This document shows positions 1 through 14,466 of a stretch of 14,466 bases of DNA, one piece after another. Source of the DNA: Candidatus Yanofskybacteria bacterium. Its GTDB lineage: Bacteria > Patescibacteriota > Minisyncoccia > 2-02-FULL-40-12 > GWA2-44-9. Position 1 is the first letter of the stretch. Each line of letters starts with the position of its first letter. The stretch covers positions 1-14,466 of the forward strand of contig JACPNL010000011.1 in assembly GCA_016185505.1 (NCBI GenBank), written 5' to 3'. The notes below the pieces were generated by a model, which worked only from the letters and a program-made list of their open reading frames with translations, did no database searches and had not been told where the DNA came from. A program made the position numbers and the translations under genes.

Positions 1-882
1 GGGAAGAATTATCTCTACATTCCCCACGGCCCGGTAGTAGATTTTTCAAATGCGCAAAGCGCAAAGCCGGAGGCAATTGAAAAATTCACTACCGGGCACG
101 GGCCGGAGATGTTGACTAAAAATTTTCAAGTTCAAGTTAAGAACGAGGTTGATAATTTTATGCGGTATCTTAAAAAGCTGGCAAGAGAAGAAAAATCAAT
201 TTTTGTGAAAATGGAACCTGCTTCCGATGTCGTTACGGAGACAATTTTCAGAAAAGGAATGAAGCGGTCAAAAAAAGAAATCCAGCCAGCAAAGTCAGTT
301 ATCCTTGATCTTTTCTTACCGGAAGATGAACTTTTGGCGCGGATGCACCACAAGACGAGGTATAATATCCGTCTCGCTGAGAAAAAAGGCCTGTGGCTGG
401 AAGAGTCAACCGACGTTGAAACATTCTGGAAGTTGCTCCAGAAGACCGCGAAGAAGGATAAGTTTTACACTCATGAAAAAAGTTATTACGAAAAACTTCT
501 GTCGTATTTTGCTCACGATCGTGAGAAAAATACGACAGAACTCTCAACACTACTGTTTTTTGTTTATTACAAAGACAAACCAATCGCCGGTGCAATAGTA
601 ATGTCGTATGGAGATACTGCATATTATCTGCACGGAGCGATGGACCGGAGTTACAAAGAACTAATGGCGCCGTATGCTTTGCACTGGGAGAATATAAAAT
701 TCTTGAAGCAAAAAGGATTCAAATACTACGATCTTTGGGGTATTGACGCGCAAAAGTGGCCCGGCGTTACCCGCTTCAAGCTCGGCTGGGGAGGCGATAC
801 AAAAGAATACCCCGGCTCGTTCGACATCCCTGTCTCAAAATTTTGGTATTTAATGTATAACCTTGCCAGAAAGGTATTTTAG
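1..882 (+). CDS. FemAB-family peptidyltransferase (peptidoglycan interpeptide bridge / aminoacyl-tRNA dependent); 5' partial, reading frame open to window start
   Basis: Frame 1 has no stop from position 1 to the annotated ATG at 109 (GKNYLYIPHGPVVDF...), so the gene continues upstream of the window. The C-terminal half carries FemAB-like segments (AYYLHGAMDRSYKELMAPYALHWENIKFLKQKGFKYYDLWGI). Stop TAG at 880-882. Confidence 0.55.
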   Translation, partial: GKNYLYIPHGPVVDFSNAQSAKPEAIEKFTTGHGPEMLTKNFQVQVKNEVDNFMRYLKKLAREEKSIFVKMEPASDVVTETIFRKGMKRSKKEIQPAKSVILDLFLPEDELLARMHHKTRYNIRLAEKKGLWLEESTDVETFWKLLQKTAKKDKFYTHEKSYYEKLLSYFAHDREKNTTELSTLLFFVYYKDKPIAGAIVMSYGDTAYYLHGAMDRSYKELMAPYALHWENIKFLKQKGFKYYDLWGIDAQKWPGVTRFKLGWGGDTKEYPGSFDIPVSKFWYLMYNLARKVF

Positions 883-1967: not shown

Positions 1968-3455
1968 ATGTTCAAAGAAGGATTGTTGGACAAAATTTTA
2001 AGAAATATCAAAAAACTGATACCGAAGTCGGTATTTGATTTTTTTGCGCCGGTTTATCATGCTACTTTAGCTTATGTCGGGGCTTTTTTGTACGGATTTC
2101 CATCACGTTCAATGAAGGTCATCGGTGTGACGGGAACTAAAGGCAAGTCAACGACGGTTTTTTTGATAAGTAAGATTTTGGAGGCGGCAGAATTAACGAC
2201 ATCGGAAGGCCAAAGGACTTCCGATGTCAATGTGGAGGAGCGCCCTCCACAAGGCGGGGTGGCGGCAATCGGGTCTCTCGGATATAAAATAAAAGATAAA
2301 GAATGGCCGAATACTCTGAAAATGACAATGCCCGGCCGGTTCAAATTGCAGAAATTCCTGGCCGAAGCCAAAAGAGCCGGATGCAAGTATGTGGTTCTTG
2401 AAGTGACTTCGGAGGGCATCAAACAAAAGCGCCATATGGGAGTAAAATTTGATTGTGCCGTGTTTACTAATCTGCACGAAGAGCATATTGAAAGTCACGG
2501 TTCTTTTAAAAATTACTATAAAGCCAAGCAGGAATTATTCAAAAAGACCTCAAATATTCACGTAATTAATGCCGATGATCCCCGCGTAGATTTGTTTGGG
2601 AACTTTCCGGCAAAGCATAAGATATTTTATGGATTGGAAAAAGGGGATTTGGTTGCCGGCAAAATTCAGTCCACGGAAAAAGGAACATCATTTGAACTTT
2701 ATGGCACGCGCTTTGACACTCATTTGGCCGGAGAGTTTAATGTTATGAATTGTCTGGCGGCGCTGGCGGTGGGGGCGATGTATAAGATTGATTTGCCCGC
2801 GATGAAACCGGTTTTGGAGTCAATTAAATTTATTCCGGGAAGGATGGAGTTCATACAGCGGGAGCCGTTTGGAGTGGTGGTAGATTATGCGCACACGCCA
2901 GATTCTTTGCGAAGCGTTTATCAAACGCTTCGCAAGAATCTGGCGCAACCAACAACCAACCCCGCACCAAGCTTATCCGCTGACCGCCATTCAGAAAGGG
3001 GGCGGGCTTGGAGCGGGGCAGGCAACCGACAACCAACAACAGGAAAATTGATTTGTGTTCTTGGTGCGGCGGGCGGGGGTAGAGATAAATGGAAAAGGCC
3101 CGAATTCGGAAGAATCGCGTCGGAATACTGCGATGAGATTATTTTGACGAATGAAGACCCCTATGATGAAAATCCCCAAAGCATCATCAAAGATATTGAA
3201 AGGGGATTTTCATCGAAATTTTCAATTTTCAATTTTCAATTTTCAAATAAATCCCAATTACCAAATCACAAAATAATTCTTGACCGTCGTGAGGCAATTC
3301 AAACTGCCTTGACAGATGCCGGGGAAGGTGATACCGTTATTATCACAGGGAAGGGTTCGGAGACGTCAATGGCCGTCGCGGGGGGCAGGAAGCTCCCTTG
3401 GTCGGACAAGGATGTCGTCCGTGAAGCTCTTCGACAACAATCCTCCTGCGCATAA
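1968..3455 (+). CDS. Mur ligase family protein, MurE-like (UDP-N-acetylmuramoyl-tripeptide synthetase-like) lacking the canonical N-terminal domain; contains low-complexity in-frame insertions
   Basis: P-loop GVTGTKGKSTT, central domain VVLEVTSEGIKQKRH ... FTNLHEEHIESHG, MurE-type DYAHTPDSL motif, GAAGGGRDKWKRPEFG, C-terminal ITGKGSE. Only about 50 aa precede the P-loop, against about 110 in MurE. Confidence 0.8.
   Translation: MFKEGLLDKILRNIKKLIPKSVFDFFAPVYHATLAYVGAFLYGFPSRSMKVIGVTGTKGKSTTVFLISKILEAAELTTSEGQRTSDVNVEERPPQGGVAAIGSLGYKIKDKEWPNTLKMTMPGRFKLQKFLAEAKRAGCKYVVLEVTSEGIKQKRHMGVKFDCAVFTNLHEEHIESHGSFKNYYKAKQELFKKTSNIHVINADDPRVDLFGNFPAKHKIFYGLEKGDLVAGKIQSTEKGTSFELYGTRFDTHLAGEFNVMNCLAALAVGAMYKIDLPAMKPVLESIKFIPGRMEFIQREPFGVVVDYAHTPDSLRSVYQTLRKNLAQPTTNPAPSLSADRHSERGRAWSGAGNRQPTTGKLICVLGAAGGGRDKWKRPEFGRIASEYCDEIILTNEDPYDENPQSIIKDIERGFSSKFSIFNFQFSNKSQLPNHKIILDRREAIQTALTDAGEGDTVIITGKGSETSMAVAGGRKLPWSDKDVVREALRQQSSCA
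3217..3244 (+). repeat. 4 x AATTTTC heptamer tandem repeat inside Mur ligase CDS
   Basis: Direct reading: aattttc aattttc aattttc aattttc (encodes FSIFNFQFS). Confidence 0.9.
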
Positions 3456-5142: not shown

Positions 5143-5156
5143 TATGCGATACCAAT

Positions 5157-5218
5157 ATACTAATTCATACTAATGATACGAATAGTGTTTCGTTCTTCCA
5201 TTAGTATAATTAGTATGC
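5157..5218. repeat. Long imperfect inverted repeat (arms ATACTAATTCATACTAATG / CATTAGTATAATTAGTAT, 23-nt loop)
   Basis: The right arm (5199-5218) is the reverse complement of the left arm (5157-5175) apart from a one-nucleotide bulge. Each arm is itself a direct repeat of ATACTAAT. Confidence 0.7.
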
Positions 5219-5249
5219 ATTCGTATATTAGCATCGCGATAGTGTTAGC

Positions 5250-5417: not shown

Positions 5418-6247
5418 TTCGATTAGGGCCCTTACTATTTATCAAGGAAGTAGTTCTTTTTGGCCTTACGCTGGCTCTTGGTCTCTATACCGCTTATTAT
5501 TACTCTTTTTACTTTACCGATCTGGTTCAGAATGGAATGGTGAATTTTACGCCGGCTGATCTGATTATTTTGGCTATTTTGTTCGTCGCTATTTTCTTTG
5601 TGGCGCGGCACAAGAGGGTTGCCCGCTTTTCCTTCAGGTTCTTTCTTATATTGATCGTCTTTTCCGGAACTCAAGTTGTGTTGGGCACTATTCTGCCTTC
5701 GCCTTGGGACTTGTTGTTTGCGGTTATCTTTACTTTAATATTCTCTATCGGTATTAATGTGTTGGTTCACAATCTAGGTATTATTCTTGGAATTGCCGGT
5801 ATTGCGGCTGTATTCGGTCTCTCTATTTCAATTGAGTTCGGGCTTGTCCTGTTGGTTGTTCTTTCTTTATATGACATAGTGGCCGTTTATGTGACAAAGC
5901 ACATGGTGACTATGGCCAGAAGTATGGTCGAAGGCGGTGCGGTGTTTGGATTTTTAATTCCGTTTGAGTTCAAAGGATTTTTTTATGGAAGAGATGAGGC
6001 AAAGGCCGGAATAGGGGAGAATTTCATGATACTTGGTTCGGGAGATATCGGATTGCCGCTTATTTTTGCGGTTTCTCTGGTTAGGGTTTCTCTGATATCC
6101 GCGATAATTACGGCCACATTCTCTTTGCTGGGATTATTTATTACTCACCTTCTTTTTATAAACCAAGGACAGCGAAGGGCAATGGCGGCTTTGCCACCGA
6201 TCGCGACACTTACAATAATTGGTTACCTTGTAACCCAATTATTGTAA
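5414..6247 (+). CDS. Polytopic membrane protein, presenilin / signal-peptide-peptidase-like (A22 family-like) intramembrane aspartyl protease candidate
   Basis: About 8 TM segments. Candidate catalytic motifs sit in TM helices: LSLYDIVAVY (YD), ILGSGDIGLPLIF (GxGD) and AALPPIA (PAL-like). Confidence 0.45.
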   Translation: MIRLGPLLFIKEVVLFGLTLALGLYTAYYYSFYFTDLVQNGMVNFTPADLIILAILFVAIFFVARHKRVARFSFRFFLILIVFSGTQVVLGTILPSPWDLLFAVIFTLIFSIGINVLVHNLGIILGIAGIAAVFGLSISIEFGLVLLVVLSLYDIVAVYVTKHMVTMARSMVEGGAVFGFLIPFEFKGFFYGRDEAKAGIGENFMILGSGDIGLPLIFAVSLVRVSLISAIITATFSLLGLFITHLLFINQGQRRAMAALPPIATLTIIGYLVTQLL

Positions 6248-6388
6248 ATTGACCTAATTATACTAATTAACCTAATTATTCTAAATAATGCCCAATACCT
6301 AATCACCAAATGCCTAAAACAGCTTGGTCATTCGGTCATTAGAATTTATTTAGGTCAATTAGATTAATTAGAACAATTAGAATAATTT
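6248..6388. repeat. About 140-bp AT-rich palindromic intergenic element (copy A) built from 9-bp TAATTNNNC units in inverted arms; MITE-like
   Basis: Left arm ttgacc taattatac taattaacc taattattc taaataat. Right arm atttattta ggtcaatta gattaatta gaacaatta gaataatt. Strongly similar to 13350-13495. It directly abuts the ATG at 6389. Confidence 0.7.
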
Positions 6389-7804
6389 ATGAAACTTACT
6401 TTCTATGGTGGTGCTCGCCAAGTGACCGGAGCCAACTACTTGTTGGAGTTGGGCCCCGACGCAAGGTCGGGGTCAACAACCAAGTTGTTGGTTGATTGCG
6501 GGATGTTTCAGGGTTCAAGGTATGCGGAAGACCTGAACTATGAAAAATTTCCATATGATCCGGCGGAGATTAATTTTATTTTTATCACTCATAGTCATAC
6601 CGACCACGCTGGACGCTTGCCCAAGTTGTATAAAGAAGGATTCAGGGGCAAGGTCGTTGCGACAAACGCGACCCTTGATCTTATCAGAAAAGCTCTGCCG
6701 GACAACTTAAGATTGATAGAACAAGAAGCAAAAGATACTGGACGAGAACCACTGTTCTCTCTTGAGAACTTGGAAGGTGTTCTTAATTTGGTTCAGGGAG
6801 TTGATTATGAGGAAAATATTGAATTAGGTGGTGGTCTTGAAGTTAAATTACATGATGCCGGACACATATTGGGTTCTTCCATCGTGGAAATACGATGGAA
6901 GAACAAATCCGAAATCCGAAATCCGAAATCCGAAAATAATTCGAAACATCTTTACTTTACCGGTGATCTGGGGAATCCCCCGACACCCTTATTGAAATCG
7001 CCTTATTACCCCAATGATGCTGATTATGTCGTTATAGAGTCCGCCTACGGTTCAAGAACTCACGAGGATAAGGCCGAAAGAAAGAATATTTTACAGAAGA
7101 TCATAATTGAAACCATCCAAAGAGGTGGTGTGCTGACGATACCTTCGTTCGCGATGGAAAGAACGCAGGAACTTCTCTATGAACTCAATGGTCTGTTCAA
7201 CGACAATAAAATTCCCAAAGTACCCGTTTTTGTCGATTCTCCTCTGGCTACCAATTTGACCGAGGTGTACAGAAAGCATTCGGATTATTTCAATAAAGAA
7301 ACTATGTATATAATTAATTCCGGTGACGATATATTTAATTTTCCCGGGCTAAAATTCACTCGTACCACCGAAGAATCAAAACAGATAAACGATGTTACTC
7401 CGCCGAAGATAATAATTGCCGGCTCGGGAATGTCTACCGGCGGCCGGATATTGCATCACGAAAGGCGTTATCTGCAGGATCCGAATTCCACTATTCTGTT
7501 CATCGGTTATCAAGTAAAAGGTTCTTTGGGCAGGAGAATTTTGGATGAGGAAAAAGAGGTCAAAATATTCGGCGAAAAAGTTACCGTGAACTGCAAAGTG
7601 GAGGCGATAGGAGGATACTCCGCTCACGCCGACAGCGAAGGGCTTTTGGAATGGGTCAAAACCGCGAACAGCGAAGGTAAATTAAAAAAGGTATTTGTGG
7701 TGCAAGGCGAAGAGGATTCCTCATTGGCTCTCGCAAGAAAAATAGAAAGAGCGCTGGAAATTGATGCGGTGGTGCCGAAGCAAGGGGAAGGGTTCGAGTT
7801 GTAG
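6389..7804 (+). CDS. MBL-fold metallo-hydrolase, beta-CASP RNA-metabolising family (RNase J / CPSF-like ribonuclease)
   Basis: HSHTDHAG (HxHxDH), LVDCGMFQG, a beta-CASP region and C-terminal GGYSAHAD. 471 aa. Confidence 0.8.
   Translation: MKLTFYGGARQVTGANYLLELGPDARSGSTTKLLVDCGMFQGSRYAEDLNYEKFPYDPAEINFIFITHSHTDHAGRLPKLYKEGFRGKVVATNATLDLIRKALPDNLRLIEQEAKDTGREPLFSLENLEGVLNLVQGVDYEENIELGGGLEVKLHDAGHILGSSIVEIRWKNKSEIRNPKSENNSKHLYFTGDLGNPPTPLLKSPYYPNDADYVVIESAYGSRTHEDKAERKNILQKIIIETIQRGGVLTIPSFAMERTQELLYELNGLFNDNKIPKVPVFVDSPLATNLTEVYRKHSDYFNKETMYIINSGDDIFNFPGLKFTRTTEESKQINDVTPPKIIIAGSGMSTGGRILHHERRYLQDPNSTILFIGYQVKGSLGRRILDEEKEVKIFGEKVTVNCKVEAIGGYSAHADSEGLLEWVKTANSEGKLKKVFVVQGEEDSSLALARKIERALEIDAVVPKQGEGFEL
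6905..6932 (+). repeat. 4 x AAATCCG heptamer tandem repeat inside MBL-fold ribonuclease CDS
   Basis: aaatccg x4 (encodes SEIRNPKSE). Confidence 0.9.
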
Positions 7805-8032
7805 AGCGAAACTATCAAATAATTTTTTACGCCTTACGCTCCATTAACAAATCTTGCAATAATTTATCATTGTTCAGACAAAAATTTAGCACCCGTTCCT
7901 CCCTTCGGGATTTTCCGGCTAAATTTTTGGAAGATTACCTGAACAATTTCTAAATTATCTTGGATTTGTGATAAAGGAGCGTAAACGCTAGAAAAATTAC
8001 TTAACAGTTTCGCTCTTTGGATGCTTTGATTT
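7803..8032. repeat. Long palindromic element C1: about 40-bp inverted arms (GAGCGAAACTNNCAAATAATTTTTTANGCCTTNCGCTCC) enclosing a palindromic cargo capped by a UUCG hairpin
   Basis: Left arm 7804-7842 and right arm 7976-8015 are near reverse complements. The inner pairs ATTAACAAATCTTGCAATAATTTATCATTGTTCAG / CTGAACAATTTCTAAATTATCTTGGATTTGTGAT and AAAAATTTAGC / GCTAAATTTTT flank TCCCTTCGGGA. The start overlaps the TAG stop of the MBL gene. A second copy lies at 9695-10109. Confidence 0.7.
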
Positions 8033-8083
8033 TTACTCTTTGCTATTTTGCCAACAAAGTTTAATCATACACAACACAGAGCT

Positions 8084-8668
8084 TTACTTCTCCCAATTTC
8101 CGAGGCGGGGTGGGTTGTTGTTGGGCCACGTAAAGTGGCGTGGCCACCATGTGGCTTTACGCCAGTCGGCCAACATTACGAGGATTTTTACCAGCAATGG
8201 CTTGTTGTCGCGAGCTATCATCGCTATTGCGCAGGCGCGGTGCATTCCTTCGGCTATGCAAATGTCGCCGTTAGGCAGACGAGTGGCGGTTAGAGTTGTT
8301 TCCGTTCCGTTAAAATTATTCGCGATATCTCGTATATACCAGTGATTATGAACTCCCGGATGGGTGAGCAGGTCTTTGAGTCGCGGCGGCTGTTCGGGAA
8401 AAGAATTGTAGAACCATTTGCTCCAACCGTGGAACATTCCGCCTCGCCATTCGGGGATAGTTGCAAGCGGTTTGGGAACTTCGTAGAGTCCCCATTTTAA
8501 TTCTCGAGAAAACAACGGCGCATGGGTTTTCTTTCTCCATTCCTCCCACGATTTGTGCCCCTTTGCTTCCCAAAACGGTTTCCAGTGCTCAACACCTTCT
8601 TCCATCTTCCGCCAACTCTCAAAAACTTCATTAGGGGTCAGTGGTTTTATGAATTTTAATTCGTCCAT
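8084..8668 (-). CDS. Hypothetical Trp-rich protein with possible ParB/Srx-like (DGxHR-type) motif
   Basis: The only convincing minus-strand ORF (194 aa). PNGDICIAEGMHRACAIAMIARD resembles the ParB/sulfiredoxin-fold DGHHR region. Unusually rich in Trp. The overlapping plus-strand ORFs 8040-8345 are judged spurious. Confidence 0.45.
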   Translation of the reverse strand: MDELKFIKPLTPNEVFESWRKMEEGVEHWKPFWEAKGHKSWEEWRKKTHAPLFSRELKWGLYEVPKPLATIPEWRGGMFHGWSKWFYNSFPEQPPRLKDLLTHPGVHNHWYIRDIANNFNGTETTLTATRLPNGDICIAEGMHRACAIAMIARDNKPLLVKILVMLADWRKATWWPRHFTWPNNNPPRLGNWEK

Positions 8669-8757
8669 GTTCTTAAGTTATCACTTCTGTTTAATGAAGT
8701 AAAATAAAATTTCGGATACTCGATGAATTGAAATTAGCAAGTTTCTTGAACCTTTAT

Positions 8758-8799
8758 TCTTGTCTCAATTTTCCTCGTACGAGGAAAATTGAGACAAGA
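8758..8799. promoter_or_regulatory. 42-bp perfect palindrome in divergent intergenic region (candidate operator / cruciform)
   Basis: TCTTGTCTCAATTTTCCTCGTA | CGAGGAAAATTGAGACAAGA is perfectly self-complementary. It lies between the minus-strand gene start (8668) and the plus-strand gene start (8909). Confidence 0.6.
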
Positions 8800-8908
8800 G
8801 TTATTCGTATCCTATTTTTAGGGGGATAATTTTGAGTGAAGCAAAGTAAAGAGTGTGCTCTGGTTATCCCTTTGAAGAATTTGTTATAAGTTGTAAGATG
8901 AAATCATT

Positions 8909-9631
8909 ATGACAAACGATAAAAAGGGGCAACTCAACTTGCCGGCGTCTAAATTACCGGCAGAAAAACCCAAAAAAGGGGAGGATTTTAGAAAGTCGCT
9001 TCACTGGCGGGTGTTCAGGATACTTTCCGAATTTGTGGAGGGCTGGCAGTTTTTGGCCGATTTCAAAAAGACTGTTTCGTTTTTCGGTTCTGCTAGAACT
9101 CCCGAAGGCGATAAATGGTACGAGGAAGCGCGCAAGCTTGGGAAACTGGCGGCCGAGGGAGGATTTGCGGCAGTAACCGGTGGAGGTCCCGGCATTATGG
9201 AAGCGGGCAACCGCGGCGCCGTTGAGGGCAACGGCAAGTCCATTGGCATAAACATACAACTAGAAACGGAGCAAAGAATTAACCCTTATGTGCAGGAGAG
9301 TACCGCTTTCCACTATTTTTTTGTCAGAAAAGTCATGCTGTCATTTGCCGCTCAGGCGTATGTGTTTTTTCCCGGCGGGTTGGGAACGTTAGATGAGGTG
9401 TTTGAATTGGTGACTCTCATCCAAACCAAAAAAATATCAGAAAAGATCCCCGTTGTTCTGCTTGGAAAGGACTTTTGGGAGCCGATAGACAAGCTTTTAA
9501 GAGAAAATTTTTACGAAAAATATCAGACCATTGATAAAGAAGATCTCAATATTTATAAAATAGTCGACTCCGCCGAAGAGGCATATGAACTCATCAAAAA
9601 CGCCCCACCTAGAGAGGACTGGTATTATTAG
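8909..9631 (+). CDS. LOG-family protein (cytokinin riboside 5'-monophosphate phosphoribohydrolase-like; TIGR00730 / YvdD-type)
   Basis: VTGGGPGIMEAGNRGA and FPGGLGTLDEVFE are the LOG / lysine-decarboxylase-like family motifs. About 240 aa. Confidence 0.8.
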   Translation: MTNDKKGQLNLPASKLPAEKPKKGEDFRKSLHWRVFRILSEFVEGWQFLADFKKTVSFFGSARTPEGDKWYEEARKLGKLAAEGGFAAVTGGGPGIMEAGNRGAVEGNGKSIGINIQLETEQRINPYVQESTAFHYFFVRKVMLSFAAQAYVFFPGGLGTLDEVFELVTLIQTKKISEKIPVVLLGKDFWEPIDKLLRENFYEKYQTIDKEDLNIYKIVDSAEEAYELIKNAPPREDWYY

Positions 9632-9694
9632 TTGGTCAAGCCAGCTGAGCTGGCTCAACCCCACTAAATTTTGAGAAAAGGCATACTCTTGCAG

Positions 9695-10109
9695 TAGAGC
9701 GAAACTGCCAAATAATTTTTTAGCCTTCCGCTCCAGGAGAGCAGGATTCAAACTCCCATCGTCTTGAGAGACCCAAAAATGAGATGATTTCTTTGGTGTG
9801 ACGACGAAGATGTAGTTTAACACTACTTCGAGGAGGCACAACAAAGAAAGCGTCCATTTTTGGGCTCCCCCTTGGGGCGGGGCGGACTTACTTATCTGCT
9901 TCGTTGTCCAGATTCCTTCGGAATCGAGGATCCTCGATTGCTTCGCAATCGGGACTCGTCGCTTACGTACCGTTAAGGTACGCATCACTCCTCGCGCCTC
10001 GCATATAAGCAAGTCCGCTCCCGCTCAATTGATGCGAGTTTGAATCCTGCTCTCCTACGTCAACGCTAAAAAATTATCTGACCAGTTTCACTCTCTGGAT
10101 GCTTTGATT
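9695..10109. repeat. Palindromic element C2: same outer arms as C1, carrying a different, nested cargo
   Basis: TAGAGCGAAACTGCCAAATAATTTTTTAGCCTTCCGCTCC (9695-9734) matches the C1 left arm. ACGCTAAAAAATTATCTGACCAGTTTCACTC TCTGGATGCTTTGATT (10062-10109) matches the C1 right arm and tail. Confidence 0.7.
9735..10056. mobile_element. Nested 322-bp element with perfect 21-bp terminal inverted repeats (AGGAGAGCAGGATTCAAACTC ... GAGTTTGAATCCTGCTCTCCT), highly structured interior; MITE-like or structured ncRNA
   Basis: Perfect TIR 9735-9755 / 10036-10056. The interior holds several perfect hairpins: ATTCC-TTCG-GGAAT, CGATTGC-TTCG-GCAATCG, GTACC-GTTAA-GGTAC and the CGAGGATCCTCG palindrome. No ORF. 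Confidence 0.55.
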
Positions 10110-10324
10110 CAATCGATGATGTTGGAAAGAAACAAACTATTCATTCTCAAAATTTAGAGGGGTCTCGCTCCTCAACGCTAATTTTTCCGTGTTTTCCGAT
10201 TTTTCAGCGCTTCTGTGGTTAAAATTACCCAACGGCCTCGCTCCTCGGACGTTTTTATTTAATCGACGCAACAAGGGGTCTCGCTCCTTTGTGTTGTTGT
10301 GCTTGGTATTTTTGATGGGGCAGG

Positions 10325-10354
10325 TTGACAAAGCATAGCCCAATATGCTACAAT
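10325..10354 (+). promoter_or_regulatory. Near-consensus sigma70 promoter for nfeD-flotillin operon (TTGACA - 18 bp - TGCTACAAT) with palindrome AGCATA-N6-TATGCT in spacer
   Basis: TTGACA at 10325-10330. TACAAT at 10349-10354, preceded by an extended -10 TG. Inverted repeat AGCATAGCCCAATATGCT in the spacer. Confidence 0.55.
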
Positions 10355-10440
10355 ATTTTGGAAATCTCGAGTTGCCAGAAGGGCTCTCGAGATGGCAGTT
10401 CGTTCACAACTGTGGAGAGCCACGGAGAGAGGAAGGGGAT

Positions 10441-10968
10441 ATGCCACTGTTTATCGTCGCCGGGCTCATGGGGTTCCTGTTCTTCGTTGGGGCACTGATT
10501 TTCGGTGACCACGACGTCGGGCACGACCATGACTTTGATGGCGACCATGACCATGGAGGGTCGAGCGTGTTTTCGGTCTTCAATGTGTCATGGTTTCTCA
10601 TCGGGTTCGGCGGAATGGGGGCGGTTATCAGGGCCAATGACGTGGGGATGCCCGGAAGCACGATGTCCGGTCTCGCGACCGGTATTGCTTGCTGGGGCCT
10701 CGCTTTCTGCGTCATGCACCTGCTTGCAAAACAGCAGGGTGATTCAACCGTGACAGTCGCACGCATCATGAATGCGACTGGTACGGTCGTGATGTCTATT
10801 CCCGCAAACGGGGTGGGCAAGGTCCAGTGCAGTGTGGCCGGAAGCTTGCAAGAGTTTCTGGCTCGCTCGACGACACCGGTTTCGTTGTCGGAAGGTTCTC
10901 AAGTGAGAATCGTCGGCGATGCCGGTGGTGTGTACTTGGTGGAAGCTCAAACACAAGGAGGCAGGTGA
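10441..10968 (+). CDS. NfeD-like membrane protein (short NfeD / YuaF-like, partner of SPFH-flotillin)
   Basis: Start at the ATG at 10441 behind GAGGAAGGGG. The ATG at 10345 lies inside the -10 box. Two TM helices, a His/Asp-rich loop (DHDVGHDHDFDGDHDHGG) and a C-terminal beta domain. The stop overlaps the SD of the downstream flotillin gene. Confidence 0.65.
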   Translation: MPLFIVAGLMGFLFFVGALIFGDHDVGHDHDFDGDHDHGGSSVFSVFNVSWFLIGFGGMGAVIRANDVGMPGSTMSGLATGIACWGLAFCVMHLLAKQQGDSTVTVARIMNATGTVVMSIPANGVGKVQCSVAGSLQEFLARSTTPVSLSEGSQVRIVGDAGGVYLVEAQTQGGR

Positions 10969-10969
10969 C

Positions 10970-11269
10970 ATGGAGTTTTGGAAACAGCTCTCGGCAAACC
11001 TCGGATGGGTTATCGGAACAGTCCTACTGTTCATAGCCATCCTTGGTTCTCTTCGTTACGCGGCAAGCCGGTACAAGAAAGTGCCGCCAAGCCGCGTCGG
11101 GATCATCTACGGCCGTAAGCAGATCTATGAGATCCCGCAACAGGATGGAACCGTAAAGCAGGAGAAGCTTGGATTCCGCCTGCTCACCGGCGGCGGCGCG
11201 CTTGTCCTCCCGTTCTTGGAAGACTATGCCGAGTTGGACCTAAGCGCTCGACGTGATGATCGACGCTAG
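10970..11269 (+). CDS. Flotillin (SPFH-domain, FloT/YuaG-like) N-terminal fragment - interrupted by +1 frameshift near 11243-11256
   Basis: Strong SD AAGGAGG (10954-10960). MEFWKQ...VLLFIAILG TM helix, then GRKQ...FRLLTGGGALVLPFLEDYAELDLS matching flotillin (RGGGTFVFPVFEEVEKLSLEVM). The frame then runs into RRDDRR-stop. Confidence 0.7.
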   Translation: MEFWKQLSANLGWVIGTVLLFIAILGSLRYAASRYKKVPPSRVGIIYGRKQIYEIPQQDGTVKQEKLGFRLLTGGGALVLPFLEDYAELDLSARRDDRR

Positions 11270-12701
11270 AGGCACAGCTACTGTCGTGATCGGAACCGAT
11301 ACGTCGAGTCTCATCACTGCCGCTCGCAACTTCGAAGGTAAGAAGGAACAGGATATCAACCAGATTGCCCGGGAAAACCTGGAAGGCCAACTGCGGTCGA
11401 TTCTCGGCACCTTGACGGTTGAAGACCTGATCGGTGAGCGCAAGAAGCTCAATGAGGCGGTCTTGGAAGGTGCGGAGAGTGAGCTTCTGAAGCTCGGTCT
11501 GCGCATTTCCATCCTGACCATTCAGGAGATCACTGACCAGGTTAAGTACATCGAATCGCTGGGCAAAAAGCGTACCGCCGAAGTTCAGCGGGATGCTACT
11601 ATCGGCGAAGCCGAGGCGCAAAGCAAAGCCAAGATCGCGGCAAGCAACGCCACGAAAGAAGCCGAGACTGTCGCCGCGCAGAACGAAGTCAAGATCGCCG
11701 AGGCCAAGAAGGAGCGTGACGTTCAAGTTGCGCAATTCAAGGCATTGACCGATCGCGAAAAGGCGATTGCCGAACAGGCAGGCGCCATCGCGGCGGCCGA
11801 AGCGGACAAGACAGTGCGTCAGAGGAAGGTTGAGGCCGAAGCGGCCGAGACCACTGCGCGTATCCAACTCGCCGATCAGGAGACTGCTCGTGTCGAGAAG
11901 GAACTGCAGTTCCAGGTCATCAAACCGGCCGAAGCGCAGAAGCAGGCCGCGGTTATCAGGGCCGAGGGAAACAAGCAGACAGGTATCCTCGACGCCGAAA
12001 CCAAGAAGAGGCAACAGGTCATTCAAGCTGAAGCGGCTTTCGAAGCAGCTGCCAAGCAGGCCGACGCGACTCGAACCAAGGCTGAGGCTGATGGTGATGC
12101 TGCGGCAGCAATCGGCAAGGGCGACGCCGAAGCCGTACGTCTAAAGCTCACAGCTGAAGCCGATGGCGAGAAGGCAAAGCGTCTTGCCGCCGCCACGGGT
12201 ACCGAAGCTGAACTGCGGGCGGCTGCATCCGGCAAGGAAGCAGAACTGCTTGCAGAGGCACGCGGTGCTGAAGCAAAGCTCCTCGCAGAGGCCAAGGGTA
12301 AGGAACAGCTGGCTCTCGCGCTTGCCAAACTGGATCAGACAGGCAAACTTCTACAGGTGCTCGACGCAGCCCCCAAGGTTGCAGAGGCCCTGGGCGAAGC
12401 TCTCGCCAAGGCGCTCGGGCCCGACGGCCTTGCCAACGTGTTCGGCCAGATGGCCGCTCCGCTCGGCAGTGTTGACTCGATCCGGATGTATGATTTCGGC
12501 GGGAATGGCCATAACGGTAATGGTGCCGGATCGTTGGCCAAGTATGCCAACATCACACCGGAGCTGTTCTTCAATTTCGTCTCGAAGGCGACGGCACTGG
12601 GTTTCGGGTCTTTGCTCGAGAAGGTCGGGCTGACCTCCGAGATTCTGGACGACATGACAACTTCGGTTTCAACAGGGGCCGATGCATCCGAATCGAAGTA
12701 G
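11253..12701 (+). CDS. Flotillin C-terminal portion (SPFH core, EA-rich flotillin coiled-coil repeats, C-terminal domain); continues the 10970 frame after +1 shift (frame open from 11244)
   Basis: LDVMIDARGTATVVIG...ITDQVKYIESLGKKRTAEVQRDATIGEAEAQSKAKIA aligns with B. subtilis FloT. Long AEA/EAKA repeats follow. Confidence 0.8.
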   Translation: MMIDARGTATVVIGTDTSSLITAARNFEGKKEQDINQIARENLEGQLRSILGTLTVEDLIGERKKLNEAVLEGAESELLKLGLRISILTIQEITDQVKYIESLGKKRTAEVQRDATIGEAEAQSKAKIAASNATKEAETVAAQNEVKIAEAKKERDVQVAQFKALTDREKAIAEQAGAIAAAEADKTVRQRKVEAEAAETTARIQLADQETARVEKELQFQVIKPAEAQKQAAVIRAEGNKQTGILDAETKKRQQVIQAEAAFEAAAKQADATRTKAEADGDAAAAIGKGDAEAVRLKLTAEADGEKAKRLAAATGTEAELRAAASGKEAELLAEARGAEAKLLAEAKGKEQLALALAKLDQTGKLLQVLDAAPKVAEALGEALAKALGPDGLANVFGQMAAPLGSVDSIRMYDFGGNGHNGNGAGSLAKYANITPELFFNFVSKATALGFGSLLEKVGLTSEILDDMTTSVSTGADASESK

Positions 12702-12714
12702 CTCGTTCATTCAT

Positions 12715-12748
12715 AGAGGTCGGGGTAACAACCCCGACCTCTATTCTT
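12715..12748 (+). terminator. Terminator-like 12-bp perfect hairpin after flotillin
   Basis: AGAGGTCGGGGT-AACA-ACCCCGACCTCT followed by ATTCTT (weak U-tract). Confidence 0.5.
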
Positions 12749-12764
12749 AGGAGAGGAGAAAACA

Positions 12765-13220
12765 GTGAAGTACCAACTCACAGAAGGTATTCCGGACGCT
12801 CTCGTGATTCACTGTGCCGATCCGCGTTTTCAGGAAGCCTTCAGAGCCTACCTGAAGAATGATCTCGGTATACGTATGCCGATGATCATAGCGTTGCCTG
12901 GCGTGACCAGCCACTTCGGGATGCAGATGATGTTTCCGAAGAACTGGTACACAGTAAGGTCACACCTCAAGACCATGACAGATCGTCACGATGTGGCACG
13001 AGTCGTCCTTATCAATCACGACGACTGCAAGGGCTACGCCAAGATTGCCGATAAGCTTGGTGGTCTGGTGAAAGTTCCAGAGTGGCAGCGCAAGCACCTC
13101 CATGGCCTGGCAGAGTTTATCAGAAAGGAATATCTGCCTCACGCCTCTTTTGAACTCTACCAAGCGCATATCGTTGAGAAAGGCAGTGTGCGTGAGGTCG
13201 AGTTCGAGAAAATCTTGTAG
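12765..13220 (+). CDS. Hypothetical protein with beta-carbonic-anhydrase-like CxDxR ... HxxC motif arrangement (HCADPRF ... NHDDCKGY)
   Basis: GTG start behind AGGAGAGGAG (12749-12758). 151 aa. The spacing of the Cys-Asp-Arg and His-x-x-Cys motifs resembles the zinc ligands of minimal beta-CAs. The function call is tentative. Confidence 0.5.
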   Translation: MKYQLTEGIPDALVIHCADPRFQEAFRAYLKNDLGIRMPMIIALPGVTSHFGMQMMFPKNWYTVRSHLKTMTDRHDVARVVLINHDDCKGYAKIADKLGGLVKVPEWQRKHLHGLAEFIRKEYLPHASFELYQAHIVEKGSVREVEFEKIL

Positions 13221-13263
13221 GTTCTACGCCGCCGGTCTGATACTTACAACGGCTAACGCCGAC

Positions 13264-13312
13264 GCCCCCTTCGGGGGCCAGAGGGGGACACGTGTCCCCC
13301 TTTTAATTTTTT
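13264..13312 (+). terminator. Tandem intrinsic terminators (CCCCC-UUCG-GGGGG hairpin, then GGGGGACAC/GTGTCCCCC perfect hairpin + TTTTAATTTTTT)
   Basis: 13264-13278 GCCCCCTTCGGGGGC. 13283-13300 is a perfect 18-bp palindrome followed by a T-run. Confidence 0.8.
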
Positions 13313-13349
13313 AAAAAGTGTGATAATATAAATACAAAATATAAACACC

Positions 13350-13495
13350 CCCAATTATTCTAATTATACTAATTATTCTAATTACTCTAAATAATGACTA
13401 ATCCCCAATCATTAAATGACCAAATCGATTTAGTCATTGAGTCGTTGGGATTTATTTAGGTCAATTAGGTTAATTAGAATAATTAGGTTAATTTA
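13350..13495. repeat. Copy B of the about 140-bp TAATTNNNC-unit palindromic element (see 6248-6388)
   Basis: ctaattatactaattattctaattactctaaataatg ... atttatttaggtcaattaggttaattagaataattaggttaatt. The central part contains the near-perfect palindrome AATGACCAAATCGATTTAGTCATT. Confidence 0.7.
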
Positions 13496-13537
13496 TTGCC
13501 CTGTTTGGTTCCTGTGCTTTGTGTTTTAGCTATGTAA

Positions 13538-14466
13538 GATTTTAAAATCAACAACATCCTTATCCCCGAAGAGCTTCCTCTTATCGCTCTGAAAAACACC
13601 GTCTTATTCCCAAAGGCGGTTATTCCGCTTATCGTTCAGCGGCCCAAATCGGTCAGCGCTTTGGAGTACGCTCATTTAACTGATCGGCTGGTGTTTTTTG
13701 CCACCCAGAGAAGCACCGAAGACGATGTGAACAAAAAAGATATTTTCACTGTGAACAAAAAAGATATTTTCACTACCGGCGTTATCGGCAGGATAATCTC
13801 CGTTCTCAAATTACCCGACGGTTCTTCCAAAGTTGATGTTGAGGGTTTGGTCAGAGCAAGGATAACGGAAATTACCAACGAAGAACCATTCTTCAGGATA
13901 AAGGCCGCTCCGTTCTCGTTGACGGTCAGGGATAGTTTAGAAGAAAAAGCGCTCCTTCGGAAAGCCATAGAGCAGTTTCGAATGATCTCGGAAGTAAGAG
14001 CATTTCCAACAATCCTTCCCGAAATTATATATATGATGTCGCAGATCAAAGACACCGAGCATATTATAAGTTTGATGGCGGTTAATTCCGGTTTAGAAAT
14101 AGAAGATCAGCAAAATGTCCTTGAAATGGAGAGCGCGATAGACGCCTTACGCCAACTAAACACGTATCTGGCCAGAGAGTCGGAATTATTGGAAGCCGAG
14201 AAAAAAGTCGCTAAGGAAACCAAAAAACAACTCGGCAAGATGCAGAAGGAATTGTTTTTGCGGGAGCAACTCAAAAGCATAGAGAAAGAATTGGGCGTTG
14301 ATGACGAGAAAGGCGAAATGGAAACGATAAAACACAAGATAGCCGCCGCGGGAATGCCCAAAGAAGTTGAAGAAAAGGCAAGCAAAGAACTTCATCGTCT
14401 AGGCAAAATGCCGCCATTCAATCCCGAGGTCTCATATCTTCGCACCTATCTTGACTTGATGGTTGA
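13538..14466 (+). CDS. lon: ATP-dependent Lon protease, N-terminal (LON substrate-binding) domain onward; 3' partial (runs off window); start codon unresolved
   Basis: LPLIALKNTVLFPKAVIPLIVQRPKSV ... LKLPDGSSKVDVEGLVRARI is the canonical Lon N-domain. The frame is open from 13538 to the window end. There is no in-frame ATG, GTG or TTG before the LPL motif. The ATG at 13532 is followed immediately by TAA. Confidence 0.8.
13727..13774 (+). repeat. Perfect 24-bp tandem duplication inside lon (VNKKDIFT x2)
   Basis: gtgaacaaaaaagatattttcact occurs twice in direct tandem. Confidence 0.9.

Follow-up and report, generated by a model that had tools for sequence, protein, structure and literature searches.

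A lineage-specific family of modular, nested palindromic repeats in Candidatus Yanofskybacteria and close relatives

What are the two long palindromes with shared arms and different contents that lie at the ends of two genes in a genome of Candidatus Yanofskybacteria, and how might they have come to be there? The stretch of DNA analyzed here (the window) is an entire 14,466-nt NCBI contig of a metagenome-assembled genome of this bacterium and carries genes typical of Patescibacteria, namely those for FemAB, GNAT, a TrpR-like protein, a Mur ligase, a presenilin-type peptidase, a beta-CASP RNase (6389-7804) and LOG/TIGR00730 (8909-9631). The first palindromic element (copy 1, or WIN1) is located between the beta-CASP gene and a convergent gene for a 194-amino acid protein (8084-8668, minus strand), and it begins within the TAG codon (7802-7804) that ends the beta-CASP reading frame. 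The second (copy 2, or WIN2) follows the LOG gene and spans, as a whole, positions ~9658-10171. We find that both are members of a previously undescribed, lineage-specific family of modular, nested palindromic repeats; no description of repeats of this sort in Patescibacteria was found in the literature searched.

An earlier note on this stretch, made without database searches, claimed that the same inverted arms are present at both loci, and this is indeed the case. The 5' arms (7803-7842 and 9696-9734) share GTAGAGCGAAACTnnCAAATAATTTTTTA, with 93% identity over 29 nt, the 3' arms together with the adjacent tail (7980-8031 and 10058-10109) show 83% identity along 52 nt, and according to a repeat scan both 5' arms are complementary to both 3' arms. 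The arm consensus matches the window three times, compared with 0.00 matches expected from 200 shuffles. The common tail GGATGCTTTGATT occurs exactly twice (8019-8031 and 10097-10109), which alone is within chance, but both occurrences are in register with the arms. The 3' arm of copy 2 occupies 10057-10094 rather than 10062-10093, as previously given. The arms of copy 1 enclose a palindromic module (133 nt, 7843-7975) tipped by TCCCTTCGGGA at 7900-7910, and those of copy 2 enclose 322 nt that begin and end with the two halves of a 26-nt inverted repeat, 96% complementary overall and perfect over the outer 21 nt. Two features had been overlooked: a third layer in copy 2, consisting of an outer inverted repeat of 20 nt (9658-9677/10144-10163, 95% complementary), and a further, truncated unit at 10208-10288.

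Relatives were collected by an arm-pattern scan of JGI/ENA metagenome contigs and from syntenic contigs reached through LOG homologues; L-numbers denote related loci or contigs, and the suffixes a and b separate elements in one contig. Among the 69 arm-pattern matches in the metagenome contigs, 13 are true relatives, so that the search for more copies suggested in the earlier note yields 13 metagenome contigs in addition to the syntenic ones, with about 15 further family copies in total. The syntenic contigs contribute L091 8790-9115, which is orthologous to copy 1, L035b, and three elements in L092 (7057-7300, 8384-8660 and 16914-17175). The terminal motif of the family, CGCTC(C/T)-N1-3-GGATG, has 13 matches in 110 kb of family loci vs. 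2 in 364 kb of loci with chance matches. Searches of viral contigs and phage records with the arm and cargo patterns gave chance matches or none.

Comparison of these copies shows a hierarchical organization. The outermost layer is an ACCCC...GGGGT scaffold; inside it lies the arm unit, with a GAGCG.../...CGCTC base, a AATAATTTTTT tract and the 3' extension CTCC-YGGATG, and the apex of the arm unit holds a short loop, the 133-nt module (hereinafter type 1) or another insert. Read on the F strand (F and R denote the plus and minus strands of the window, respectively), a full element begins after the upstream stop codon with (G)TCGCTCA, ACCCCACTAAATTTTGAGAA and the spacer AAGGCACACTCTTGCAGT; it continues with the 5' arm AGAGCGAAACTG..AATAATTTTTTAGCCTTCCGC, the apex, the 3' arm CGTCAACGCTAAAAAATTAT..CAGTTTCGCTCT and CTGGATGCTTTG, and ends with the tail ATTTAATCGATGAAGTTGG-loop-CCAAACT, TTCTCAAAATTTAGnGGGGT and CTCGCTCC. 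The tail consensus in the other copies is TTAATCGAYGAAG. The layers are separable: the outer one is missing from copy 1, L045, L054, L091 and L035b, and the outer layer found after the LOG gene in L092 (8384-8660) encloses a quite different, GC-rich inner hairpin. The base of the arms exists in at least three co-varying versions, GAGCGAAACTG/CAGTTTCGCTC, GAGACCGTC/GACGGCCTC and GCGCGACCG/CGGTCGCGC.

The reuse of the apex, which the earlier note proposed from the two window copies, is borne out by the series of empty, type-1-filled and 322-nt-filled copies of the same arms. Five copies are empty (L034, L052 (= L076), L058, L079 and L072), with the arms 5-9 nt apart, as in AGCCTTCCGCC-AAGC-CGTCAATGCT, and their short loop sits exactly at the site of the 322-nt insert in copy 2 and of the 133-nt module in copy 1. 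For example, the two halves of L079, which match window positions 9653-9731 (95%) and 10058-10173 (86%), are 5 nt apart, compared with 326 nt in the window. The type-1 module (CCATTAACAAATC...GATTTGT) is present within the arms of L040, L045, L054, L078, L086, L091, L035b and L092b. It varies at its tip, between ..CCGTTCC and TTTTCCGGC.., where the window and L086 have TCCCTTCGGGA, L045 a 35-nt hairpin, L092b an 18-nt perfect palindrome, L091, L035b and L102 a 54-nt perfect zero-loop palindrome, and L040 and L054 a palindrome with 33-bp arms. These tip palindromes are perfect or near-perfect and mutually unrelated.

The units also move or are copied as wholes. Over 275 nt, with the 54-nt apex palindrome included, ~97% identity is found between positions 8809-9083 of L091, after the beta-CASP gene, and ~1056-1345 of L035, where a YraN-family gene starts nearby; the borders of this 275-nt unit are sharp (TCACGAGACC... 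and ...CTCCCTGGATG), and the flanks are unrelated and contain no direct repeat. Copies that are 90-95% identical to the scaffold of copy 2 follow the genes for FtsZ, EF-P, an HtrA-like protease, YraN and RecA, and a copy-1-type unit follows the RF1 gene; in all, family copies lie behind at least nine different housekeeping genes. In L045 and L078, the RF1 open reading frame (ORF) extends six codons into the arm (ending in ..SETAK and a stop), as expected after an insertion at the gene end. Family copies from different genomes are 90-95% identical, vs. ~80% for the coding DNA of the syntenic relatives compared with the window. At the orthologous 3' end of the LOG gene, relatives with 86-93% identical LOG proteins have unrelated hairpins, an IS256-type insertion or nothing. 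Hybrid copies (L054 and L035a) combine arms of non-matching types that do not pair at the base, and truncated copies are found in L078 and at window positions 10208-10288; the interrupted module of L078 was considered as an autonomous element and rejected, being a truncation. Taken together, these observations show that new sites, for the most part the first bases after a stop codon, receive copies of the units as discrete blocks, and that the family evolves by gain, loss and exchange of tip palindromes and by recombination between copies that yields hybrids and truncations.

A second family of AT-rich long hairpins (D1) is represented in the window by two copies (6245-6390 and 13341-13496) that are 81% identical. 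The first occupies exactly the interval from the SPP stop codon to the ATG of beta-CASP; in L091 and L092 these two genes overlap (ATATGA), and an unrelated hairpin is found at this junction in L098. The folding energy of D1 is -49.7 on the minus strand vs. -32.5 kcal/mol. By filling the junction of genes that overlap in relatives, this sister family behaves like the arm family, and we count it in support of the interpretation that follows.

The interpretation that we favor, with a probability of roughly 0.55, is that the elements form a lineage-specific family of non-coding, non-autonomous REP/BIME-, ERIC- or MITE-like (MITE, miniature inverted-repeat transposable element) palindromic repeats in Candidatus Yanofskybacteria and close relatives. 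The units would be selfish and would spread through recognition of the arm hairpin, single-stranded on the minus strand of the window, by a putative enzyme encoded elsewhere in the genome. The 322-nt insert would be a further layer of the same nesting rather than a gene in its own right, and any effects on the termination or stability of neighboring transcripts would be secondary.

The role assigned to the minus strand is suggested by an asymmetry of the arms. Both copies fold better than shuffled sequences on either strand (z-scores of -9 to -14), and in both the minus strand folds better than the plus strand (-92.9 vs. -75.7 and -209.6 vs. -190.2 kcal/mol). The same holds for the consensus of the five empty copies (-69.3 on the minus strand vs. 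-64.6 kcal/mol), and most relatives likewise fold better on R. The covariation analysis that the earlier note recommended, performed on an alignment of 13 arm pairs, reveals compensatory changes, on both sides, in 8 of the 27 arm pairs, and none of 500 shuffles reach the observed values; the small tail hairpin also shows compensatory changes. The covariation of the arms is not decisive for an RNA because DNA palindromes would show the same. Among the transition mismatches in the arms of all copies, 27 are A·C and 5 are G·U on F, and when the two hybrid copies are left out, 21 are A·C and 1 is G·U, distributed over at least 9 different pair positions and over different copies, so that the arm helix is complete, using G·U pairs, on R only. 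Outside the arms, mismatch counts are balanced between the strands (33 vs. 55 for whole elements). The same strand tendency is observed in several unrelated hairpins of these genomes (D1a, window 5146-5237, L092a and L035 463-660), and a few show the reverse. Mutational bias was rejected as the cause of the asymmetry: with the positive GC skew of the plus strand, C-to-T deamination on the exposed strand predicts the opposite bias. The strand bias may mean that the arm hairpin is used in single-stranded form on R, as single-stranded DNA or antisense RNA, or that selection weakens the duplex in the sense RNA.

The arm hairpin might be a functional minus-strand RNA, either a family of antisense small RNAs or the 3' end of convergent transcripts, with the tail as a 5' leader and an apex that tolerates extra RNA modules. 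The better minus-strand folding of both copies and of the empty-copy consensus, the 21:1 excess of arm mismatches that are G·U-compatible on the minus strand and the compensatory changes in the arms and the tail hairpin are all compatible with such an RNA, as is the location of copy 1, which lies where the minus-strand gene 8084-8668 ends. However, the bias is confined to the arms and is also expected if selection merely weakens the sense-strand duplex, no minus-strand promoter-like site is predicted for copy 2, at most loci both neighboring genes are on the opposite strand, and no Rfam family matches. Moreover, hybrid copies with non-pairing arms occur, and the perfect zero-loop palindromes at the tips are un-RNA-like. 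We therefore regard a functional minus-strand RNA as unlikely, albeit far from negligible.

The position and orientation of the elements are relevant to a role in the sense transcript. At nine independent loci (beta-CASP, window LOG, L092 LOG, FtsZ, RF1, EF-P, HtrA-like, YraN and RecA), the 5' side of the element, as read on F, adjoins the stop codon of a gene with the same orientation, the element usually starting 0-30 nt past it. Two elements are exceptions, L092b, which is reversed and follows a canonical terminator, and L035b, which lies in a divergent promoter region; L035a, L084 and L086 are uninformative in this respect. Given this placement, the elements could act at the sense RNA level, either terminating transcription of the gene that precedes them or protecting its mRNA as 3' hairpins, and their similarity would reflect a common signal recognized by a protein or an RNase. 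REP-type repeats, too, are reported to lie for the most part behind ORFs, and their transcription is plausible (PMC3733652). The details of the sequences are at odds with this possibility. The sense strand has A·C where the antisense strand has G·U, which is the opposite of what is expected of a hairpin selected in mRNA. No U-run directly follows the stems, the arms being followed by CTGGATGCTTTGATT.. and the outer stem by CTCGCTCC.., and where the arm or outer stems end on the 3' side, a scan called no terminator-like site; canonical terminators with a GC stem and a T-run are present beside the elements in L092 (~16850-16900) and in the window (13290-13330). Two copies, L092b and L035b, differ in orientation or position, and the occurrence of sharp-ended, 97% identical units at unrelated loci would be left unexplained. 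Action in the sense transcript thus appears distinctly improbable. A consensus scan found no promoter-like site on either strand in or beside copy 2, the nearest predicted one (10325-10354, plus strand) being located just downstream, where it serves the next gene. A promoter and a small ORF in the conserved tail were considered and rejected, given that no promoter is predicted there and no reading frame is conserved.

The earlier note described the 322-nt insert of copy 2 as a nested element with terminal inverted repeats and offered nested MITEs or a stem-enclosed structured RNA family as possible readings. The inverted repeats are there, but two other defining features of a MITE were looked for and not found, so that the evidence does not support calling the insert a nested transposon or MITE: ~540 kb of related loci, viral contigs, phage records and called ORFs yielded no further copy, and no target-site duplication was found at the insert, the flanks of which (...CGCTCC and ACGTCAACG) contain no direct repeat; empty copies carry CAAGC or similar at this site. 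The insertion sequences (IS) seen in the relatives (IS256-type in L105 and IS3-type in L106) have ends that are unrelated or not comparable. The insert consists of a 26-bp closing stem (9735-9760/10031-10056) around two hairpins, A (~9763-9876) and B (~9877-10033), has a GC content of 0.51 vs. 0.40 for the arms, folds with similar energies on both strands (-158.5 vs. -163.5) and contains several zero-loop palindromes, e.g., AATCGAGGATCCTCGATT. The base of its stem, GGAGAGC...GCTCTCC, resembles the GAGCG...CGCTC base of the family, and its plan, a stem around two hairpins, is that of a stand-alone element located immediately after a stop codon at L091 5584-5865. Hairpin A shows a marginal match to L091 5713-5833 (E = 0.012), with ACGACGAAGnTGTAG..CTACnnCGAGGAG in common.

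Alternatively, the insert might be a gene for a novel structured non-coding RNA, released by processing of the arms in the manner of the stems around rRNAs. Its very stable branched fold, its GC content, elevated relative to the arms as in RNA genes of AT-rich genomes, the long enclosing stems and a non-palindromic, purine-rich internal loop motif shared with L091 would all suit such a gene. Nevertheless, the insert has no homologue in any data searched, and none of the relatives has it behind LOG, not even those whose LOG protein is 93% identical; it is not linked to the neighboring operon, which occurs elsewhere without it, its two strands fold with similar energies, and it contains zero-loop palindromes. 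Rfam 15, searched at permissive thresholds with the whole window and with 9640-10180 alone, gave only chance-level miRNA and snoRNA matches far below the gathering scores, and ARAGORN detected no tRNA or tmRNA. An RNA gene is, accordingly, highly unlikely. Among specific candidates, a tmRNA or T-arm suggested by the ends GGATTCAAAC/GTTTGAATCC was rejected because these ends are perfectly complementary to each other (the 26-bp helix) and there is neither a tag frame that ends in the usual residues nor a CCA end, and RNase P was rejected because its conserved regions (GGAAAGUCC..ACAGAA..CGGCUUA) are not present. A translated spurious 92-codon ORF across the cargo, searched among called ORFs, led to no homologous DNA. 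The insert was also rejected as a part of the downstream NfeD-like/flotillin operon, for in L106-L108 the homology of the operon begins exactly at the ATG (10440), and the upstream DNA is unrelated and contains tRNA genes.

A more far-reaching possibility, for which we see little probability, is that the arm hairpin is a single-strand scaffold, antisense to the upstream gene, into the apices of which a putative dedicated enzyme would copy or insert hairpin modules, which would constitute a new, hairpin-in-hairpin class of mobile elements; or, equivalently, that it is a modular minus-strand RNA scaffold that displays variable cargo RNAs, the 322-nt insert being a functional one among them.

Could the region simply be an assembly artefact, such as a repeat that was collapsed or joined chimerically, or a fold-back chimera? 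The cargo is present in one assembly only, and related contigs do break at the palindromes: L102 starts at the apex palindrome, and L072, L076 and L084 end within an element. However, independent assemblies from different samples and pipelines contain the same arms, outer repeat, type-1 module and even 54-nt apex palindrome, and the cargo is an imperfect, branched palindrome located exactly at the apex rather than a perfect fold-back. We put hardly any weight on an artefact.

Several points weigh against selfish, non-autonomous repeats of the REP, ERIC or MITE kind. The arm pattern is absent from 185,579 GTDB species-representative genomes: the scan gave 21 single matches, none of them (0/21) with paired arms, and the two in Patescibacteria (L007 and L008), when inspected, turned out to be coding sequence. 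No transposase or other mobilizing enzyme adjoins any copy in the ~150 kb of related genome inspected. Target-site duplications, a further check proposed in the earlier note, were sought at the ends of the units and of the cargo and none were found, so that classical cut-and-paste transposition is not shown. The GC skew of the plus strand is positive throughout and, if this strand is the leading one, the best-pairing strand is not the one expected to be exposed at the replication fork, which makes for a poor fit to a simple single-strand model of the IS200/IS605 type. The near-constant position and orientation of the elements (nine loci vs. two exceptions) would fit a function at the transcript level as well. 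Finally, the 322-nt insert is only loosely tied to the family as one more layer, by its design, the GAGAGC/GCTCTC base of its stem and the marginal L091 match, and it has no second copy.

Comparison with known repeats also bears on the proposal of selfish palindromic repeats. REP/BIME are repetitive extragenic palindromes tagged with GTAG that are thought to be mobilized by RAYT tyrosine transposases. Both they and the elements described here are non-coding imperfect palindromes that are dispersed around the genome without target duplication, combine into mosaics and are found mainly downstream of ORFs, between co-directional or convergent genes. In addition, both window copies start with GTAG-AGCG. 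In contrast to REP, the present units are 80-300 nt and more in length, rather than 20-40 nt, are hierarchically nested and have a conserved 3' extension CTCC-YGGATG and the tail noted above. No RAYT/Y1 transposase gene was seen in ~150 kb of annotated related contigs. GTAG precedes AGCG in WIN1, WIN2, L052, L079 and L072, the others having TGAG, AGAG, ATAG or TAAG; with units far longer and GTAG in only ~5 of 11 copies, membership in the GTAG-REP class is not established. The combination of REP repeats into larger structures downstream of ORFs, and their presence inside some genes, have been reported (PMC3733652). ERIC/IRU, the Correia elements of Neisseria and MITE-like elements resemble the present family in their size of 100-300 bp, long inverted arms and intergenic, probably transcribed positions. 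Larger variants of ERIC likewise arise by internal insertions at fixed sites. In the present family, unlike in ERIC and Correia elements, there is no TA or other target duplication, and there are several nested layers. Insertion sequences of the IS1397/ISKpn1 type insert into the loop of REP palindromes, where the apex of the palindrome is likewise a reused site; the inserts described here differ in that they are palindromes that encode nothing, carry no transposase gene and have no target duplication. Integron attC sites are imperfect palindromes at gene 3' ends, in a fixed orientation, and function folded on one specific DNA strand. The palindromes studied here share with attC the location at gene 3' ends and the fixed orientation, but they are flanked by syntenically conserved core housekeeping genes, neither an integrase nor a cassette array is present, and no R/L boxes (GTTRRRY) were seen at the ends of the elements when inspected by eye. 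We know of no related insertion sequence with the same ends as the family. TIGR arrays were considered and rejected as there is no tandem array and no Nop-domain protein. The palindromic elements of Rickettsia and the hairpin repeats of organelles are selfish hairpins of small AT-rich genomes, where they have entered the junctions between genes and in places the coding sequence itself, with several families per genome; here, similarly, D1 splits two overlapping genes and a palindrome is found inside FemAB. The differences are the host lineage, the lack of any sequence relation and the stronger preference for the first bases after stop codons in the present family. Repeated invasions have been described for the RHEs of sponge mitochondria and the palindromic repeats of Volvox (PMC2800124, PMC2670323).

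The coordinates of the parts of the window elements are given in Table 1.

Table 1. Parts of the two palindromic elements and of the truncated unit in the window
Feature	Position	Strand	Basis or context
Copy 1 5' arm, alpha type, AGAGCGAAACT..AATAATTTTTTACGCCTTACGCTCC	7803..7842	.	Repeat scan and arm consensus
Copy 1 inner type-1 module, 133-nt imperfect hairpin	7843..7975	.	Recurs within arms of relatives
Copy 1 3' arm	7976..8016	.	Direct and inverted repeats, arm consensus
Copy 1 3' extension TTGGATGCTTTGATT, part of the family terminal motif CGCTC(C/T)-N1-3-GGATG	8017..8031	.	
Copy 2 outer inverted repeat, left arm ACCCCACTAAATTTTGAGAA	9658..9677	.	Repeat scan
Copy 2 conserved spacer AAAGGCATACTCTTGCAGT	9678-9695		Follows the outer left arm
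Copy 2 5' arm, alpha type	9696..9734	.	Repeat scan and arm consensus
Copy 2 apex insert (cargo), 322 nt	9735..10056	.	Single-copy in all data searched
Copy 2 3' arm	10057..10094	.	Repeat scan, relatives
Copy 2 3' extension CTGGATGCTTTGATT and conserved tail (T)CAATCGATGATGTTGG..CAAACT, small covarying hairpin	10095..10143	.	
Copy 2 outer inverted repeat, right arm TTCTCAAAATTTAGAGGGGT, and terminal CTCGCTCC	10144..10171	.	Repeat scan
5'-truncated further unit: orphan beta-type 3' arm AAAATTACCCAACGGCCTCGCTCC, TCGGACG, tail TTTAATCGACG, terminal GGGGTCTCGCTCC	10208..10288	.	Repeat scan

Copy 2 forms the left boundary of a larger, ~3.9-kb insertion (9632-13535) between the LOG gene and the gene for Lon, which begins at ~13535 and runs off the contig; the right boundary is the D1b hairpin. 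In L054, L091, L092, L098 and L103, LOG is directly followed by Lon. The insertion has a GC content of 0.54-0.57 vs. 0.39-0.45 elsewhere and encodes an NfeD-like protein (the true start is probably the ATG at 10441), a small ORF, a flotillin/SPFH protein (11253-12701) and Pro_CA_2 (12765-13220). The NfeD-like/flotillin operon adjoins tRNA genes in L106 and L107, and PADLOC identified no defence genes in it. In L105 (1222-2265), an IS256-family element bounded by 36-nt inverted repeats has inserted downstream of LOG; its transposase belongs to the Zn-binding variant (NF048019, E = 2.9e-87). Insertions have thus occurred repeatedly at the LOG-Lon junction.

Other palindromes and repeats were observed in the window and its relatives. 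Inside the FemAB gene (109-882), there is a 44-bp near-perfect zero-loop palindrome (497-540), which is kept in L091 (1681-1716) as a 36-bp zero-loop palindrome, 94% complementary, with arms that have changed in parallel; a similar palindrome lies inside the Mur ligase gene of L091 (4285-4330). A perfect 21+21 bp zero-loop palindrome (8758-8799) in the divergent promoter region between the 194-amino acid protein gene and LOG has a counterpart in L091 (9826-9865) that is conserved with changes. Inside a called Wzy_C gene of L091, the 29-nt self-complementary CCTGTGGATAACCGACATTCAATGTCGGT occurs twice, inverted and 360 nt apart (16217-16256 and 16606-16634). A third hairpin family around CAGGTAGTGAATTT is represented at window positions 29-97, L035 131-203, L091 4967-5032 and L105 230-430, in the last case enclosed by other inverted repeats. 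On both sides of the TrpR-like gene (1417-1854) there are 30-nt repeats (1351-1395 and 1861-1898), with the palindrome TATGATATATCATA beside a TATAAT box; in L091 these repeats are found at 2549-2578 and 3099-3128, with a third copy elsewhere (16039-16076), and they are probably promoter-operator sites of this repressor. Finally, a perfect 24-bp tandem duplication (13726-13773) in the N-terminal region of Lon doubles the peptide NKKDIFTV in frame.

Patescibacteria, also known as CPR, are regarded as having extremely streamlined genomes, yet several families of nested repeats have settled at almost all of the longer gene junctions, which shows that even such genomes retain selfish or structural repeat DNA. 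In practice, the repeats cause contigs to break in metagenome assemblies of CPR, and they could be employed as strain-typing markers in an uncultured lineage. They also allow a test of action at the DNA level vs. the RNA level, and the series of filled and empty apices, together with the mismatch bias on one strand, provides a handle for finding the recognizing enzyme.

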